Of a stretch of DNA of 33,409 nt, positions 8,619-33,409 are shown piece by piece. The first letter of the stretch is position 1, and each line of letters begins with the position of its first letter. The stretch is from the NCBI GenBank assembly GCA_031431875.1, contig JANPEF010000095.1, positions 1 through 33,409 on the forward strand. The letters run 5' to 3'. A program made the position numbers and the translations under genes. The notes beneath the pieces are model-generated. The model worked only from the letters and a program-made list of their open reading frames with translations, was not told where the DNA came from and made no database searches. Origin of the DNA: Candidatus Eiseniibacteriota bacterium (GTDB lineage: Bacteria; Eisenbacteria; RBG-16-71-46; DASYSL01).

Positions 8619-8622
<4 letters not shown>
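6187..8622 (-). CDS. bamA: Outer membrane protein assembly factor BamA
   Basis: Signal peptide, five POTRA-like repeats (e.g. ITGNTYTKENVIRREL), NLFGNGQ, SFTDPWF, LRGY motif, C-terminal Phe. Confidence 0.95.
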
Positions 8623-11078
<2,456 letters not shown>

Positions 11079-11101
11079 GACCCTGGGCCTCCTCGCGGGT
11101 G

Positions 11102-12184
11102 CTACCCGCGTCCGCCATCGCCGGTTTCGGAAATCGCGCGCTCCAGTCGAGCCCGCACGAGTTCGGCGCGAAGAAGATTCCGTTCGGGCGCCTCGAGGGC
11201 GCGGCCGGCGCCACGCTGCAGGTGCGCCGGCTGGGTGAAGACGAGCAGTTCGTTGACCACGGCCAGCGGCGGCAGCCCGGCAAATCCGAGCGCCACCCCC
11301 AGGCGGATCGCGGAACAGAGGTTGATCACTTCCTGGCTCGACATGTTGCGGCCGTAGCGCAGGCTTCCATAGGCACGCCAGACCTTGTCCTCGATCTGGG
11401 TGCGAGCGTCGCGCAGCATCACGTCGCGCGCCCGTTCCTCGTAGTCGAGGATCTGGCGGGTGACGCGATCGAGGCTCTCGATGCTCTCCTGCTCGCTGTG
11501 GCCGAGCGTCGTCTGGTTCGAGAGCTGGAAGAGGTTGCCCATCACATCGGATCCCTCGCCGTAGAACCCGCGCACGGCGAGCCCGACCTGCATCACCGAC
11601 TTGAGCACCTTGTCGATCTGCTTGGTCAGCACGAGCGCCGGCAGGTGGATGAGCACCGAGGCGCGCATGCCCGTCCCGACGTTCGTCGGGCAGGCGGTGA
11701 GGTAGCCCAGTTCGTCGGTGAACGCGTACTCGAGCGCGGCTTCGAGCTCCTCGTCGGCGTGTTCGGCGACGGCCCACGCCTCGGCCAGCTGGAAGCCCGA
11801 GCACAGGGCCTGCAGCCGGACGTGATCCTCTTCGTTGACCATCACCGACAGCCGCTCGCTCGGCCCGATGTAGAGGCCGCGCGGGCGGGCGCCGTCGGAC
11901 AGTTCGTGCGACACGAGGTGCCGCTCGACCAGGAACTGCCGCTCGATCGGCGTCAGCTCGTGCATGCGCAGCAGGCCGCCCCCGGCGAACGACACCGAGT
12001 CCTTCGCCGCGCGCTCGACCGCGCCGAGCACGCCGACGAGTTGCTCGTCACGGGCGCGGTGCGAGAACGGCACGCCGCTCAGGTTGCGGGCCAGCCGCAC
12101 CCGGGTGGAGACGACGAGGTCCGCGCGCGGGCCACTGCCGTCGAGCCAGGGGCCGGGATTGCGGGCCAGGGTGTCGAGATCCAT
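11102..12184 (-). CDS. mcsB: Protein arginine kinase McsB
   Basis: STRVRLARNL, NEEDH, LGYLTACPTNVGTGMRASV, QLSNQTTLG. Lies between mcsA and clpC. Alternative GTG start at 12187. Confidence 0.95.
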   Translation of the reverse strand: MDLDTLARNPGPWLDGSGPRADLVVSTRVRLARNLSGVPFSHRARDEQLVGVLGAVERAAKDSVSFAGGGLLRMHELTPIERQFLVERHLVSHELSDGARPRGLYIGPSERLSVMVNEEDHVRLQALCSGFQLAEAWAVAEHADEELEAALEYAFTDELGYLTACPTNVGTGMRASVLIHLPALVLTKQIDKVLKSVMQVGLAVRGFYGEGSDVMGNLFQLSNQTTLGHSEQESIESLDRVTRQILDYEERARDVMLRDARTQIEDKVWRAYGSLRYGRNMSSQEVINLCSAIRLGVALGFAGLPPLAVVNELLVFTQPAHLQRGAGRALEAPERNLLRAELVRARLERAISETGDGGRG

Positions 12185-12711
12185 CACGCCTCCGCCGGGC
12201 CGGTCGCCGCGCCCTGCTGCTTCTCGAGTCCCTTGATGCGGTCGCGGATCTCGGCCGCGCTCTCGAAATCCTCGCGCTCGACGGCCCGCTGCAGGTCGTC
12301 GTACAGGTGCGACAGGGCGCGGGCGGGCGACGGGGCGGCCTCGGCGTGCAGAGGCAGCTTGCCGACATGGCGGGTGGAGCCGTGAATCCGGCGCAGGAGC
12401 GGGCGCAGCTTGCTCTGGAACGCGACATAGCAGTCCGCGCACCCGAGACGCCCCGTGTCCTTGAACGCCGAGTAGTGCATGCCGCAGGACGGGCACTGCA
12501 CCGGACCCACGCGCTCCTCCTCGGTGGTGGACATCTTGTCCACCATCGTGGCGAGCAGGTCGGCGATCGAGAACTTGGGCGTCGCCGGCACGCCGACGAG
12601 ACCCCGCTCCTCGGCGCAGGCGCGACAGAGGTGCACTTCCGTCATCCGATTGTCCTGGACGTTCGTGAAGTGCAGCTGGGCCGGATTCTTATGGCAGCTC
12701 TGACATTGCAT
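12184..12711 (-). CDS. mcsA: McsA (activator of McsB; UVR domain)
   Basis: Four CxxC motifs (CQSC, CRAC, CPSC, CADC), IHGSTRHVGK, and UVR motif EDFESAAEIRDRI. RBS GGAGG upstream. Confidence 0.94.
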   Translation of the reverse strand: MQCQSCHKNPAQLHFTNVQDNRMTEVHLCRACAEERGLVGVPATPKFSIADLLATMVDKMSTTEEERVGPVQCPSCGMHYSAFKDTGRLGCADCYVAFQSKLRPLLRRIHGSTRHVGKLPLHAEAAPSPARALSHLYDDLQRAVEREDFESAAEIRDRIKGLEKQQGAATGPAEA

Positions 12712-30171: not shown

Positions 30172-31191
30172 CTAGACCAGAACGACCTCGCGGGGCCCGG
30201 CCTCGATCGACCCGAGGCGCCAGGGGCGCTCGCCGCGCGTCTCGAGTTCGGCCCGCACTGCGGTTGCCTCGTCCGGCGCGACGATCAACACCATCCCGAC
30301 CCCGAGGTTCATCACCCGCTCCATCTCGTCGCCGGGCACCTCCCCGAGTTCCTGCAGCGCGCGGAACACCGGCGGCCACGTCCAGCTGCCGCGCTCGACC
30401 CGGGCCCGCACCCCCGCGGGCAGCGCGCGCACCAGGTTCCCCGCCAACCCCCCGCCGGTGACATGGGCGAGGCCGTGCAGTGCGCGGCGATCGAGCAGGG
30501 GCCCGAGCACCGAGAGGTACGAGCGGTGGGGTGCGAGCAGCAGGTCGGCGAGCGTGCCATCGGCGCCCGGAAGTGAATCGTCCCAGGTCAGGCCGGCGCG
30601 GGCGACGATGCGCCGGGCCAGCGAGTAGCCATTGGTGTGCAAGCCGAGCGACGGCAGCGCCCACAACTCGTCGCCGGGCCGGATCGCCGTGCCGTCGAGC
30701 ACGCGATCGCGCGCCACGAAACCGACGATCGTGCCGGCGAGGTCGTAGTCACCCGGCGAATACAGGTCGGGCATCTCGGCGGTCTCGCCGCCGAGCAGCG
30801 CGACGCCGTCGGCGCGGCAGGCCTCGGCGATGCCGCGCACGCTTTCCTCGAGCACGATCGGCTCGAGCGCGCCGCAAGCAAAGTAGTCGAGAAAGAACAG
30901 CGGCCGCGCACCGAGCACGAGGATGTCGTTGACGCAGTGGCGCACGAGGTCCCCCGCCGCGCCAGCCCAGCGCCGCGTATCGCGCGCAATCAGGATCTTC
31001 GTGCCCACGCCGTCGGTGCTGGCTGCGATCAGCGGCGCGTCCGGCCCCGCGCCCGGAAGCTCGCACAGGCCGGCGAAGTGACCAACGTCGCCTTTCACGT
31101 GCGGCGTGAAGGTCGAGCGGATGACGGCCTTGAGCCCCGACAAAGTGGCGTCGGCCTTGGCGATGTCGACGCCGGCGTCGCGGTAACGCAT
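30172..31191 (-). CDS. purM: Phosphoribosylformylglycinamidine cyclo-ligase (AIR synthetase)
   Basis: YRDAGVD, TDGVGTK, VNDIL..GARPLFFLDY, GGETAEMP, GLHTNGYSL, AHVTGGG, NLGVGM. Confidence 0.97.
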   Translation of the reverse strand: MRYRDAGVDIAKADATLSGLKAVIRSTFTPHVKGDVGHFAGLCELPGAGPDAPLIAASTDGVGTKILIARDTRRWAGAAGDLVRHCVNDILVLGARPLFFLDYFACGALEPIVLEESVRGIAEACRADGVALLGGETAEMPDLYSPGDYDLAGTIVGFVARDRVLDGTAIRPGDELWALPSLGLHTNGYSLARRIVARAGLTWDDSLPGADGTLADLLLAPHRSYLSVLGPLLDRRALHGLAHVTGGGLAGNLVRALPAGVRARVERGSWTWPPVFRALQELGEVPGDEMERVMNLGVGMVLIVAPDEATAVRAELETRGERPWRLGSIEAGPREVVLV

Positions 31192-32540
31192 CAGGCGCCC
31201 CGGCGCACGGGCGGCAGGTCGAGCGCGTCGTCGTTCGACAGGCGCGGCGCGAGGGCCGGAAACGTGCCCGCGGCGACGAGCCGCTGGAGGGCTTTCACGA
31301 CCGCCGCGTCGAACTGGGTCCCGGCGTGCTTGCCGAGCTCACCGACGGCGCGCGCCGGATCCATCGCCCGGCGATACGGTCGATCCGAAGTCATCGCATC
31401 GTAGGCGTCGGCGACCATGACGATGCGCGAGCCGATCGGGATGTCGTCACCCCGCAGTCCCGCGGGGTAGCCGAGGCCGTCGGGGCGTTCGTGATGATTG
31501 CGCACGATCGCGGAGGCGCCCCGCAGGGCGCGCACCTTGGCCACGATCTCCGCTCCCTCCGCCGGGTGGGCGCGCATGGTCGCCTGCTCCTCGAGCGACA
31601 GACGCCCTGGCTTGGTGAGGATGTACTGGTACTGTCGGCCGACCTTTCCCAGATCGTGCAGCAGGGCGCCGTACTCGAGGTCGAGGACGGCCCGCTCCGA
31701 CATACCGAGCGCACGGGCGATGATCTTCGAGTACTCGGCGACCCGCACCGAATGCTGCCGCGTGTAGGGATCGACTTCCTCGAGCACCTCGGACAGCGCG
31801 CGGACGAACTCGAGCAGGTCCTGCTTCATCTCGAAGTAGCGGCGGAAGGACAGCGCCGCGATCAGCAGCGGCAGGCAGAACATCACGAGCGCAGCGGGGC
31901 CGCCGCGGAAGAACGCGAACGCGGCCACGACGCCGAGCGCGATCATTCCCAGATGCTGCGCCGCGGTCACCGCGTAGTTCACCTGGAATACGCGCGTCAG
32001 GGATCCCGCGCCGGTCAGCGCCAGCACGGTCGAGAGCCCGATGCCGTTGACGAAGAAATAGGTCAACCCGGCGAGGCCGATCGCAAACGCGTCGCCTGGC
32101 AGGTCGAGCCGCCCGGATGAGCCGCCCAGGCCGTGCAGCACGGCGTCGGCCGCGCCGATCATGAGGACGTACAGCGCAGCGTTGAACACCGTGCGCTGCA
32201 GCGGCTTCTTGCGCACCATGAGCTGGGCGACGAGCGTCGAAGCCACGTTGAGCGCCGCCGTCCACGGCCCGCCGAAGATGAGGAGCGCCGCGAAATCGAG
32301 GCTGGCGCCGGGCGTGGCGAAGCCGCCGCCGGGCATGCGCACCGGGGCCAGGTCGGCGAGGATCATGAGGCAGAGCGTGACGGCGAGGCCCGTCCACGGG
32401 AGCGGGTCGAGCCCGGGCGCATGCCCGATCAGCCAGGCGAGCGCGCCGGCCACGACGAGCCCATAGAACGGGAGGAACAGGGGATGGCGCGCGGACGGTC
32501 CGGGGCTCGACGGGGCCGTCCTTGCTGCACGCACTTCCAT
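31191..32540 (-). CDS. Membrane-sensor HD-GYP cyclic-dinucleotide phosphodiesterase (multi-TM, MASE9-like N-terminal domain)
   Basis: About 230 aa with many hydrophobic helices, then DPYTRQHS, LLHDLGK, HHERPDGLGYP, VADAYDAMTSDRPYR. GAGGT RBS 10 nt before ATG at 32540. The MASE9 label is from recall, not a search. Confidence 0.92.
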   Translation of the reverse strand: MEVRAARTAPSSPGPSARHPLFLPFYGLVVAGALAWLIGHAPGLDPLPWTGLAVTLCLMILADLAPVRMPGGGFATPGASLDFAALLIFGGPWTAALNVASTLVAQLMVRKKPLQRTVFNAALYVLMIGAADAVLHGLGGSSGRLDLPGDAFAIGLAGLTYFFVNGIGLSTVLALTGAGSLTRVFQVNYAVTAAQHLGMIALGVVAAFAFFRGGPAALVMFCLPLLIAALSFRRYFEMKQDLLEFVRALSEVLEEVDPYTRQHSVRVAEYSKIIARALGMSERAVLDLEYGALLHDLGKVGRQYQYILTKPGRLSLEEQATMRAHPAEGAEIVAKVRALRGASAIVRNHHERPDGLGYPAGLRGDDIPIGSRIVMVADAYDAMTSDRPYRRAMDPARAVGELGKHAGTQFDAAVVKALQRLVAAGTFPALAPRLSNDDALDLPPVRRGA

Positions 32541-32558
32541 CCCTGGGCACACCTCACA

Positions 32559-32581
32559 TGAAAGAAGAGACCGACACCGAC
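32559..32581 (-). promoter_or_regulatory. 3' arm of a long-range inverted repeat followed by a U-rich tract (terminator/attenuator-like)
   Basis: Minus strand GUCGGUGUCGGUCUC-UUCUUU; the arm is complementary to 32916-32930. Confidence 0.5.
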
Positions 32582-32635
32582 CTGGGGCTCATCTACCCTG
32601 GCAGCGATCCGGACTCAGCGAGGGTCGTCGTTCCA

Positions 32636-32653
32636 CCGCGGGCGAACCCGCGG
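32636..32653 (-). other. RNA hairpin with a UUCG tetraloop just after the peptide stop codon
   Basis: Minus strand CCGCGGG-UUCG-CCCGCGG, a perfect 7-bp GC stem with no adjacent U tract. Confidence 0.65.
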
Positions 32654-32657
32654 GGAC

Positions 32658-32810
32658 CTACCAACCAGCCTTGCCCTTATCGGACGTCGCGTCGTCCCAG
32701 CCGCCCTTGCCATCATCACCAGCGGCCTGGTCCCAACCCGCCTTGCCGTCGTCGGAAATCGTGAAGATATCGACAACGGAGTCAGCCAGCAGCATCAAGA
32801 TCGAAAGCAT
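32658..32810 (-). CDS. Small multi-core Trp-repeat peptide, 50 aa: MLSILMLLADSVVDIFTIS-DDGKAGW-DQAAG-DDGKGGW-DDATS-DKGKAGW
   Basis: Hand-translated; it is shorter than any ORF in the track. Strong RBS 7 nt before ATG. Three repeats at a 12-aa period with synonymous codon variation; TAG directly after the last Trp. Confidence 0.85.
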   Translation of the reverse strand: MLSILMLLADSVVDIFTISDDGKAGWDQAAGDDGKGGWDDATSDKGKAGW

Positions 32811-32817
32811 GTGAGAA

Positions 32818-32826
32818 CACCTCCCC
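32818..32826 (-). promoter_or_regulatory. Strong Shine-Dalgarno sequence of the peptide gene
   Basis: GGGGAGGTG on the minus strand, 7 nt upstream of ATG at 32810. Confidence 0.85.
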
Positions 32827-32865
32827 TAGACTACGTTGAGAACGGAGGAGCCGGACGGCCCCTCG

Positions 32866-32910
32866 CTTCGTTGGGTTGGCGCTCCGCTTCGGATCTTCGC
32901 TTCGCTTCGC
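32866..32910 (-). repeat. CGAAG pentamer repeats in the peptide 5' leader
   Basis: Five CGAAG copies (three in tandem at 32895-32909, plus 32887-32891 and 32866-32870) and one CGGAG variant (32882-32886). Confidence 0.6.
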
Positions 32911-32911
32911 C

Positions 32912-33409
32912 TTACGCCGATGTCGGTCTCAGTTCGTACTCCACAGGCTCGGCCACCCGAAGGCCGCCGAGCACCCGGTTGACCGCGGCCAGCGTCGCGT
33001 AGACCACCGACTGGGTCAGATCCTGTTCCACGGTGCAGGCCCCCACCAGCGTCTTTTCCGAGCGCTGGGCGAGGAGCTTCACCGCCACCACCACCGTGTC
33101 CTGTCGGCCCATCCGGACGACCTCGACGTCGTGCGCCGAGAGCGTCACATCGGGACCGAGGAACGGCGCCAGCGCCGACAGCGTCGCCGACGCGAGCAAC
33201 CGGTGTGCGTTGTCCCGGGCGGACGCGCCGGTCGCATTGCCGACCCGGGTCGTGCCCTGCCAGGACAACTCGACTTCGGCCTGCGTCCGCAGGCCGCTGA
33301 CGAACAGGTTCGCATTGACGAACCGGATCCTTGTCGTTTCGGCAGGCCCGGGAACCGGGACTGCAGAAACCGTTTTTGACTCCGCCACCACCGAGGGCGC
33401 CGGGGGAAG
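32912..33409 (-). CDS. Hypothetical protein, 5'-truncated by the window; C-terminal alpha/beta domain
   Basis: Frame stays open to the window edge (LPPAPS-VVAESK...). A Pro-rich linker precedes RIRFVNANL..EVELSW..ASATLSAL..LVGAC..SVVYATLAAVNR. Confidence 0.75.
   Translation of the reverse strand, partial: LPPAPSVVAESKTVSAVPVPGPAETTRIRFVNANLFVSGLRTQAEVELSWQGTTRVGNATGASARDNAHRLLASATLSALAPFLGPDVTLSAHDVEVVRMGRQDTVVVAVKLLAQRSEKTLVGACTVEQDLTQSVVYATLAAVNRVLGGLRVAEPVEYELRPTSA

Follow-up and report, generated by a model that had tools for sequence, protein, structure and literature searches.

Several bacterial signalling systems, among them Agr (AgrBD/AgrC) and ComQXPA, combine a peptide precursor with a membrane receptor. 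In the streptococcal ComS/XIP system, a 17-aa precursor yields a 7-aa mature form that carries a double-Trp motif (PMC5131902). For the MASE9 sensor domain (Pfam PF20972), ligand binding within the membrane has been proposed (10.1101/2021.11.05.467447). That paper names no ligand and does not contain the word 'peptide'; in its MASE9 section there is no word of an ORF upstream, of an RNA element or of the fold of S-components (10.1101/2021.11.05.467447).

Here we describe a small gene upstream of a MASE9 gene in Candidatus Eiseniibacteriota. The window, the whole stretch of 33,409 nucleotides that was analysed, is a complete contig (C95). The gene order on its minus strand is 'up', peptide, MASE9-HD-GYP and purM, with the 5' half of 'up' lying on another contig, C101. 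The protein downstream of the peptide joins to HD-GYP a domain like the described MASE9 (10.1101/2021.11.05.467447). An initial annotation, made from the sequence alone, had proposed that the 50-aa ORF encodes a multi-copy pheromone or a multi-core RiPP precursor. It gave no strand, and it overlooked the MASE9-HD-GYP partner, the RNA element and the spread of the family over several phyla. We find that the ORF is a real, conserved gene under selection, and we show that peptides of this kind are coupled to MASE9 across four phyla.

How does this locus compare with described systems? The likeness to ComS/XIP (PMC5131902) lies in a precursor of 16-25 aa, in an unannotated ORF beside the receptor gene and in a Trp motif within the last few residues, which is WW in one Eisenbacteria family. 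ComR, however, is cytoplasmic and reached by import (PMC5131902), whereas the sensor here would be a membrane protein of S-component fold with c-di-GMP output; multi-core and protease-borne forms and a conserved RNA element belong to the MASE9 loci. No RRNPP (HTH-TPR) cytoplasmic receptor is adjacent: the neighbours are 'up' and MASE9-HD-GYP. With Agr and ComQXPA the locus shares the logic of precursor and membrane sensor and, in Bacillota and Actinomycetota, a dedicated membrane protein (DUF5317). Unlike them, its peptides lack a ring Cys/Ser motif, there is no ComQ-like gene, and its output runs through HD-GYP or another effector of MASE9. The AgrB profile has no match in the genome; the control was matched in 1/14, below the cut-off. 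In the literature searched (subscription journals lie outside its coverage), there is no description of the peptide, the RNA element or the peptide-MASE9 pairing. The newness lies in the parts: we found no homologous precursor, RNA family or known ligand, and the logic resembles known peptide signalling.

The peptide ORF begins with ATG, and its TAG stop abuts Trp50 (Table 1). Re-reading the window reproduced exactly the ORF, the core residues and the three codon strings of the initial annotation, together with the Asp that follows both internal Trp residues; we also agree that the leader lacks a basic n-region. A six-frame scan of the 3.75-Mb genome finds GKxGW 16 times, and three of these matches lie inside this ORF; DxGKxGW is unique to it in the same scan. 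Because these motifs are so rare, the ORF is not a product of chance. The D(D/K)GK(A/G)GW cores first proposed describe the ORF itself correctly, but the Asp residues are missing from most relatives, and the core conserved across relatives is G-[KR]-[AGNS]-G-W. Pfam and NCBIfam hold no family for the peptide or for six orthologues, and weak signal-peptide-like matches fell far under the cut-off.

Table 1. Positions of the features of the peptide locus in the window
Feature	Position	Strand	Remarks
Peptide ORF	32658..32810	-	50 aa; three GKxGW cores after a 19-aa hydrophobic/acidic leader
Core 1 (residues 20-26)	32733..32753	-	Same as the sole core of one-core relatives (alignment A5)
Core 2 (residues 32-38)	32697..32717	-	
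Core 3 (residues 44-50)	32661..32681	-	Stop codon next
Shine-Dalgarno of peptide ORF, GGGGAGGTG	32818..32826	-	AGGAGGTG invariant in alignment A2
'up', 3' half	32912..33409	-	LeuA-regulatory-like domain; cut by contig edge
MASE9-HD-GYP	31191..32552	-	MASE9-like membrane domain (about 31773-32492; predicted ECF S-component fold) fused to HD-GYP
Stem P1, 5' arm	32916..32930	-	Within last codons of 'up'; pair probabilities 0.97-1.0; covariation
AGCGNAGCG box 1	32898..32906	-	Invariant in alignment A2
AGCGNAGCG box 2	32880..32888	-	Box pair at only 2 places in genome
Local hairpin	32845..32864	-	Predicted; between boxes and Shine-Dalgarno
UUCG-loop hairpin	32636..32653	-	Predicted; right behind stop; sequence kept only in closest relatives
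Stem P1, 3' arm	32567..32581	-	Pairs with 5' arm
Pyrimidine tract	32560..32566	-	Behind 3' arm

The MASE9-HD-GYP protein probably starts at an ATG at 32540, with a putative Shine-Dalgarno (SD) sequence at 32550-32555. Its HD-GYP motifs (HD, HHExxDGxGYP and AD-YDAM-RxYR) are intact. On the window protein the MASE9 profile PF20972 scores 21.5 and 23.3 bits (E 2.5e-4), short of its cut-off of 24.3; on aligned Bacillota orthologues it scores 37-40 bits, above the cut-off. Ahead of 'up', C101 carries genes for pfkB, argS, rsfS, a polyprenyl synthase, a CCA enzyme, an M20 peptidase and an ABC ATPase. Elsewhere in the window (8619-12496, minus strand), a gene for a McsB-like guanidino kinase adjoins clpC, in a diderm that has lpx and bamA genes downstream.

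Is the small gene kept in relatives? Among 61 genomes of the order we took the best 30 HD-GYP loci, 29 of which (the window and 28 relatives) have upstream DNA. All 29 hold a small ORF with an SD sequence that ends in [KR][AGN]GW-stop. Nine additional genomes also carry it, giving 37/37 same-order relatives with upstream DNA, a count that overstates independence since the genomes are related; one of the 37, G007 (unpublished), is a single row in the counts and in alignments A1, A4 and A5. The relatives' ORFs run to 8-49 aa with one to three cores and the [KR]xGW motif, and all lie between 'up' and the MASE9-HD-GYP phosphodiesterase. The largest family has a one-core form of 16 codons and the window's genus has three cores. 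One lineage has a leaderless ORF of 8 codons (L038, L159), and the form at L041 continues for five residues beyond the Trp.

Variation among these ORFs bears the marks of selection on a protein. Across 45 terminal cores, in which the Gly-Trp identity is imposed by the search pattern, Lys occurs 31 times and Arg 14 times, and the codons used number four for Gly, four for Ala and seven for Lys/Arg. Uncorrected pN/pS among the 23 orthologues of 16 codons is 0.35 in the core and 0.72 in the leader (the pairs are not independent); these 23 peptides have no core Asp and no acidic residue at core positions 12-16. Compared with the two closest genomes, the ORF has in its first 28 codons 4 synonymous and 0 replacement changes in one case and 0 and 1 in the other, and every length difference is in frame. 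Internal cores are conserved as well as terminal ones. Selection at the protein level, which the initial annotation had read from synonymous codon differences between the repeats, is thus borne out by conservation, synonymous codons and in-frame indels. It had further named frame-breaking changes, or loss of the ORF or its ribosome-binding site in relatives, as evidence that would tell against a gene; the length differences keep the frame, and the small ORF is present in all 37.

Beyond the order, the peptide follows the sensor. 'up' is present in 150 of 201 genomes of the phylum, and we took 39 loci from other families: 14 with MASE9, 19 in which 'up' runs directly into purM, and 6 truncated or rearranged. 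A peptide ending in GW, WW or HW precedes MASE9 at 13 of the 14. The sole exception, L067 (G078:C1:234300-239500), has MASE9-HD-GYP after 'up', with boxes and peptide seemingly lost or degenerate. The 19 'up'-purM loci all lack MASE9; two of them match the peptide rule and, by eye, are without the family's leader and boxes. Across other Eisenbacteria, peptide and sensor are usually retained or lost together. One of these families has multiplied its core independently, with two and three copies of a GGHxWW unit. At four loci (L066, L069, L071 and L074) the peptide is relocated 300-900 nt from 'up'. Boxes are kept in L066 and L071, and by eye three of the four have promoter-like TTGAC sites.

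The same association appears when the peptide is left out of the search. A pattern made of nucleotides only (two boxes and an SD sequence) found at least 119 metagenome loci, of which 118 were analysed. Among the matches listed, 34 of the 39 with 'up' or MASE9 context have an ORF of 6-60 aa with Trp in its last three residues, two of the five misses being cut by contig ends, against 0 of 79 loci where that context is lacking. The box pattern is also matched by an unrelated recurring element with a common ACGTTGAA flank and neither 'up' nor MASE9 (L097, L116, L121, L126, L129 and L186).

MASE9 proteins also occur where no peptide was detected: two of the three in the window's genome, the sigR-rsrA-type locus L336, L067 and 13 of 29 Chloroflexota loci, which by the fixed peptide rule have neither peptide nor repeats. 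One of the two in the genome is a second MASE9-HD-GYP (L048; G000:C44:7957-9222, minus strand), directly after two PilT-like ATPase genes, with no peptide or boxes seen. A paralogue in which MASE9 is joined to a histidine kinase (L378:2773-4206, minus strand, equal to G000:C159:15772-17205) itself ends in QAGW, like the peptide core. Of 51 genomes of the order, 50 have retained it, and a Gly/Ser-Trp tail closes about 19 of 30 orthologues, counted by eye; the gene preceding that of the kinase resembles, again by eye, an enolase-family dipeptide epimerase.

Does the pairing extend to other phyla? A search that started from distant relatives of 'up' gave 80 named loci in Bacillota, Coriobacteriia, Armatimonadota, Chloroflexota and Sumerlaeota, the Bacillota hosts including Desulfosporosinus, Thermincola, Caldanaerobacter and Symbiobacterium. 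A peptide by the fixed rule is found at 58 of the 69 named GTDB loci with MASE9, against a background of 43 in 1547 control gene starts of the window's genome. Among loci picked by the MASE9 profile alone, it is found in Actinomycetota at 20 of the 29 top loci and at 10 of the 17 weaker ones, and in Chloroflexota at 14 of 29. In Bacillota and Actinomycetota the peptides have a basic start and a hydrophobic stretch and, past an AGGA-type boundary, end in a variable tail of 4-6 residues that includes an aromatic one. Trp is missing from many Bacillota tails, so the shared feature is an aromatic residue and not Trp itself.

The peptide genes of these phyla vary in number, orientation and context. 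Tandem copies occur at four loci (L318, L321, L327 and L349), and at three (L331, L333 and L337) the gene is divergent, on the opposite strand. Independent multiplication of cores is seen in Actinomycetota, as it is in two families of Eisenbacteria. L319 and L325 encode two-core peptides, and a small ORF at L374 contains DLITW repeats. At four loci the genes directly upstream of MASE9 encode subtilases with Trp-pentapeptide tails, five in all: two at L328 (808-2439 and 2493-4070, minus strand) and one each at L363, L369 and L375. In the secreted Chloroflexota subtilases, Trp recurs at every fifth residue of the tail, and a Pfam Pentapeptide_2 match there is probably compositional. W followed by D recurs in several of these forms from other phyla. 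The first suggestion of a multi-copy signal precursor gains from the independent multiplication of cores and the W/D junctions in other lineages, as well as from the conservation, synonymous codons and in-frame indels described above.

In 45 of 52 Bacillota/Actinomycetota-type loci with enough DNA, the next gene encodes the membrane protein DUF5317, which is found in none of the 61 genomes of the window's order. It has two invariant Asp residues and invariant NxxGxMP, LAD and SxGD motifs (for example, L221:6206-6766), and is a candidate peptide-processing protease. A more specific proposal, an LspA-like protease cutting a lipobox-like site, has no statistical support: hhalign gives a probability of 0.8% against signal peptidase II (A8), equal to the control; PF01252 is matched by 1 of 24 members (E 0.53); and an Atlas search for such a protease came back blank. 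The literature searched, with subscription journals outside its coverage, holds no mention of DUF5317. The module in Bacillota and Actinomycetota often stands behind hpf (S30AE) (L212, L230, L260, L262 and L288), with secA following in L249 and L260 and raiA-motif RNAs within a few kilobases in L230 and L288. Some Actinomycetota loci (L334, L338, L339, L343 and L344) have an extra AGCGGAGCG box right before the start of MASE9; among the peptide ORFs, some seem to begin at non-standard codons.

What might MASE9 bind? A model of the domain built from 93 sequences has a pLDDT of 95.7. In a comparison with 48,161 chains, every one of its 15 best structural matches is an ECF S-component (Z 9.1-14.9, with 152-189 residues aligned at an rmsd of about 3-4 A). 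MreD follows at Z 8.3 and one more S-component at Z 6.0, with the remainder at Z 6 or less; Foldseek agrees, at E 0.006 and weaker. The domain is thus predicted to have the ligand-binding fold of ECF S-components, a fold that does not by itself identify the ligand. S-components bind small ligands from the outer face. The predicted fold is common to RibU, ThiT, FolT, BioY and NikM/CbiM (PDB) over about 160-190 residues. MASE9 differs in being fused to signalling domains and not serving a transporter, with a presumed peptide ligand. A prediction of the complex between the MASE9 domain and the 50-aa peptide scored 0.00, with the peptide fold uncertain, and counts neither for nor against binding.

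We favour, at slightly better than even confidence, a model in which the ORF encodes the precursor of a short Trp-ending signal that is bound by MASE9 and tunes c-di-GMP breakdown. The 50-aa product would be exported and its three C-terminal G-K-x-G-W cores released by cleavage, for example at W|D. The cores would bind the MASE9 domain of the next gene and alter c-di-GMP breakdown by the fused HD-GYP domain, in a direction that we leave free. Because the peptide genes may be divergent or in tandem, and because internal cores and protease-borne repeats occur, we take the product to be trans-acting and dose-dependent. Several observations weigh against this model. Scans of ORFs on C95 and C101 revealed no dedicated exporter or protease in the Eisenbacteria locus, and DUF5317 is found in none of the order's 61 genomes. 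The leader lacks a basic n-region, and its pN/pS is just 0.72. The 8-codon form has no leader at all, the L041 form extends five residues past the Trp, and MASE9 proteins occur where no peptide was detected.

Some of these observations suit a different model, in which the small protein is not processed but remains entire, in or on the membrane, and acts directly on MASE9-HD-GYP as a modulator, the repeats giving avidity and the GW end serving as a docking motif. MgrB, which modulates PhoQ, would be a precedent. An amphipathic or hydrophobic helix is present in nearly all forms of the peptide, the missing exporter and protease would not be needed, and the Gly-Trp-type tail of the paralogous MASE9 histidine kinase fits a docking role. 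Ligand binding in the membrane, as proposed for MASE9, would fit as well (10.1101/2021.11.05.467447). We nevertheless consider the model unlikely: the 8-codon form has no leader, the window's peptide has long, acidic, soluble repeats, repeats are also borne by subtilases, and in other phyla the peptides come with an AGGA boundary and DUF5317.

The precursor model must also account for an RNA element that surrounds the ORF. A long-range stem, P1, encloses the boxes and the peptide ORF and stops right before the SD sequence of the HD-GYP gene, in a region with a folding z of -3.4. Among 28 relatives, 91% of cells pair in P1 (31-42% in slid controls), and 22 cells have changed on both sides, against a shuffled mean of 6.8, with 0 of 500 shuffles reaching 22. 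The 5' arm has shifted from the gene into the spacer in some genomes. Other phyla retain the stem in different sequences. At 21/38, 6/11 and 34/58 loci none of 100 mononucleotide shuffles scored as high as the cognate arms, some misses being due to the choice of sequence interval; the mean helix score of cognate arms is 33, against 21 for non-cognate arms. The tract after the 3' arm contains 4.4 and 4.1 T per 10 nt, often with no clean U run. P1 is a doubtful candidate for a classical terminator: many of its 3' tracts are mixed pyrimidine or A-rich. Rfam gives no match at E<=5 in the window stretch and none over the element in 17 other loci.

The AGCGNAGCG boxes sit right before the anti-SD strand. 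Boxes were scored at 72 of the 77 Actinomycetota and Chloroflexota loci, five with short flanks being skipped; 'up' is in the genome at 29 of 31 loci with boxes and at 7 of 41 without, in genomes that are related and partly incomplete. 'up', which in Actinomycetota often adjoins the locus on the opposite strand, is predicted to combine a BolA/CDF-CTD-like N-terminal domain, encoded on C101, with the LeuA-regulatory-like domain. Judged by co-occurrence alone, the 'up' protein is probably a binder of the AGCG boxes. In the precursor model it would thereby control peptide output, and the element as a whole (anti-SD, enclosing stem, pyrimidine tract and AGCG boxes) would set the ratio of peptide to receptor.

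Part of the element is seen in RNA. Seventeen runs recorded as RNA contain part of the stretch; of the 19 runs listed, four, from four studies, were examined, and each of these has contigs that overlap the element in part. Strand, level and true ends are not readable from such contigs, in which DNA may be present. One contig, 98% alike, spans 32586-33359 and ends 5 nt before the 3' arm; a contig of a second study also starts at 32586, carrying 23 unaligned letters. In two studies adapter-bearing ends fall at 32916-32922, inside the P1 5' arm. The HD-GYP gene has little contig cover, although cover cannot rank expression. The ends at the stem give a weak hint of processing or termination there.

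So elaborate an element would also fit a model in which the ORF acts in cis, as a leader: ribosome passage, or stalling at KAGW-stop, would decide whether the transcript ends or is cut at P1 and the pyrimidine tract, before HD-GYP. The SecM arrest motif is RAGP, and the RAGW of some peptides resembles it. The covarying stem around the ORF that finishes right before the HD-GYP SD sequence, the anti-SD pairing, the 4.4 T per 10 nt past the arm in GC-rich Eisenbacteria genomes, the motif adjoining the stop, the minimal form of eight codons and, as a weak hint, the RNA contig ending at 32586 beside the 3' arm are all in keeping with a leader. The objections are genetic. Opposite-strand peptide genes at three loci argue against a role in cis only, and a leader explains neither tandem gene copies nor internal cores conserved like terminal ones, nor the Trp-repeat tails of subtilases, nor peptides without boxes in genomes without 'up'. 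Since many orthologues lack a Trp codon, attenuation by Trp starvation is unlikely. We think the leader model, on its own, distinctly improbable; a cis role could supplement the precursor model instead of displacing it, and direct modulation by an unprocessed protein can overlap with it too. MgrB-PhoQ and SafA share with the MASE9 loci a small ORF by a sensor gene, and TnaC and SecM a motif by the stop; to our knowledge, none of them has repeated cores, divergent or duplicated genes, or protease-borne copies.

The initial annotation had also raised a multi-core RiPP with Lys-Trp or Lys-Asp cross-links, to which ComX-type prenylation of Trp may be added. In its favour stand the Lys, Asp and Trp of the three cores, the gene for a polyprenyl synthase that lies about 4 kb upstream, on C101 and likewise in relatives, and one C39 peptidase elsewhere in the genome. 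The annotation saw no maturase in the window, which holds for the ORFs scanned on C95, and looked to the DNA past 33409 for one. C95 ends there, and no radical-SAM, ATP-grasp or C39 gene is among the 29 ORFs scanned on C95 and 11 on C101. The SPASM profile (PF13186) has no match in the 98%-complete genome (control matched in 8/14); the graspetide ligase PF21068 has none either, nor does its control. Neither Asp nor Lys is conserved in the core, where Arg replaces Lys in 14 of 45 terminal copies. The polyprenyl synthase, the nearest PF00348 gene, stands behind rsfS, argS and pfkB. It carries both DDxxD motifs, and the genome has just one other such gene, which fits a housekeeping enzyme; no dedicated isoprenyl transferase adjoins the precursor, and ComX-type prenylation was rejected. 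With no maturase among the ORFs scanned on either contig, cross-linking as first proposed lacks support, and we judge modification of either kind highly improbable. A type I toxin mRNA, in which 5'-3' pairing silences a small membrane toxin as in hok and aapA mRNAs, would explain a small hydrophobic ORF with a sequestered SD sequence in 5'-3' paired RNA, but it is scarcely credible for a single-copy, syntenic gene that is linked to MASE9 across phyla, has acidic and very short forms and matches no Pfam or NCBIfam family.

Taken together, do these loci represent one system? The three-core gene of the window links the one-core micro-genes to the Trp-repeat tails of subtilases, and this suggests a single system. 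We propose tentatively, with somewhat less than even confidence, an undescribed multi-phylum system in which aromatic-ended oligopeptides, supplied by micro-genes, multi-core precursors and subtilase tails, would be read by MASE9 receptors of S-component fold that drive HD-GYP or other outputs, while a dimeric LeuA-regulatory-like protein would control synthesis through AGCG-box RNA. The literature searched contains nothing on subtilase Trp repeats or on an RNA motif joined to a short ORF.

If direct modulation or a leader ORF proves to be the right account, the finding reduces to a variant of small-protein or leader-ORF control. The element is missing from Rfam, and it gives a candidate RNA-binding role to the 'up' family, which has 3100 representatives at 50% identity. 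MASE9 has been an orphan sensor, with a range that takes in Thermotoga and Thermus as well as Streptomyces and Bacillota; a candidate class of ligand can now be named for it, and the receptor has a predicted fold with a known ligand pocket. Synthetic peptides of 5-7 residues make the question of the ligand testable in hosts available in culture, Desulfosporosinus, Caldanaerobacter and Symbiobacterium among them. If the proposed multi-phylum system is real, these loci would carry out direct peptide-to-c-di-GMP signalling between cells, here in a diderm candidate phylum.
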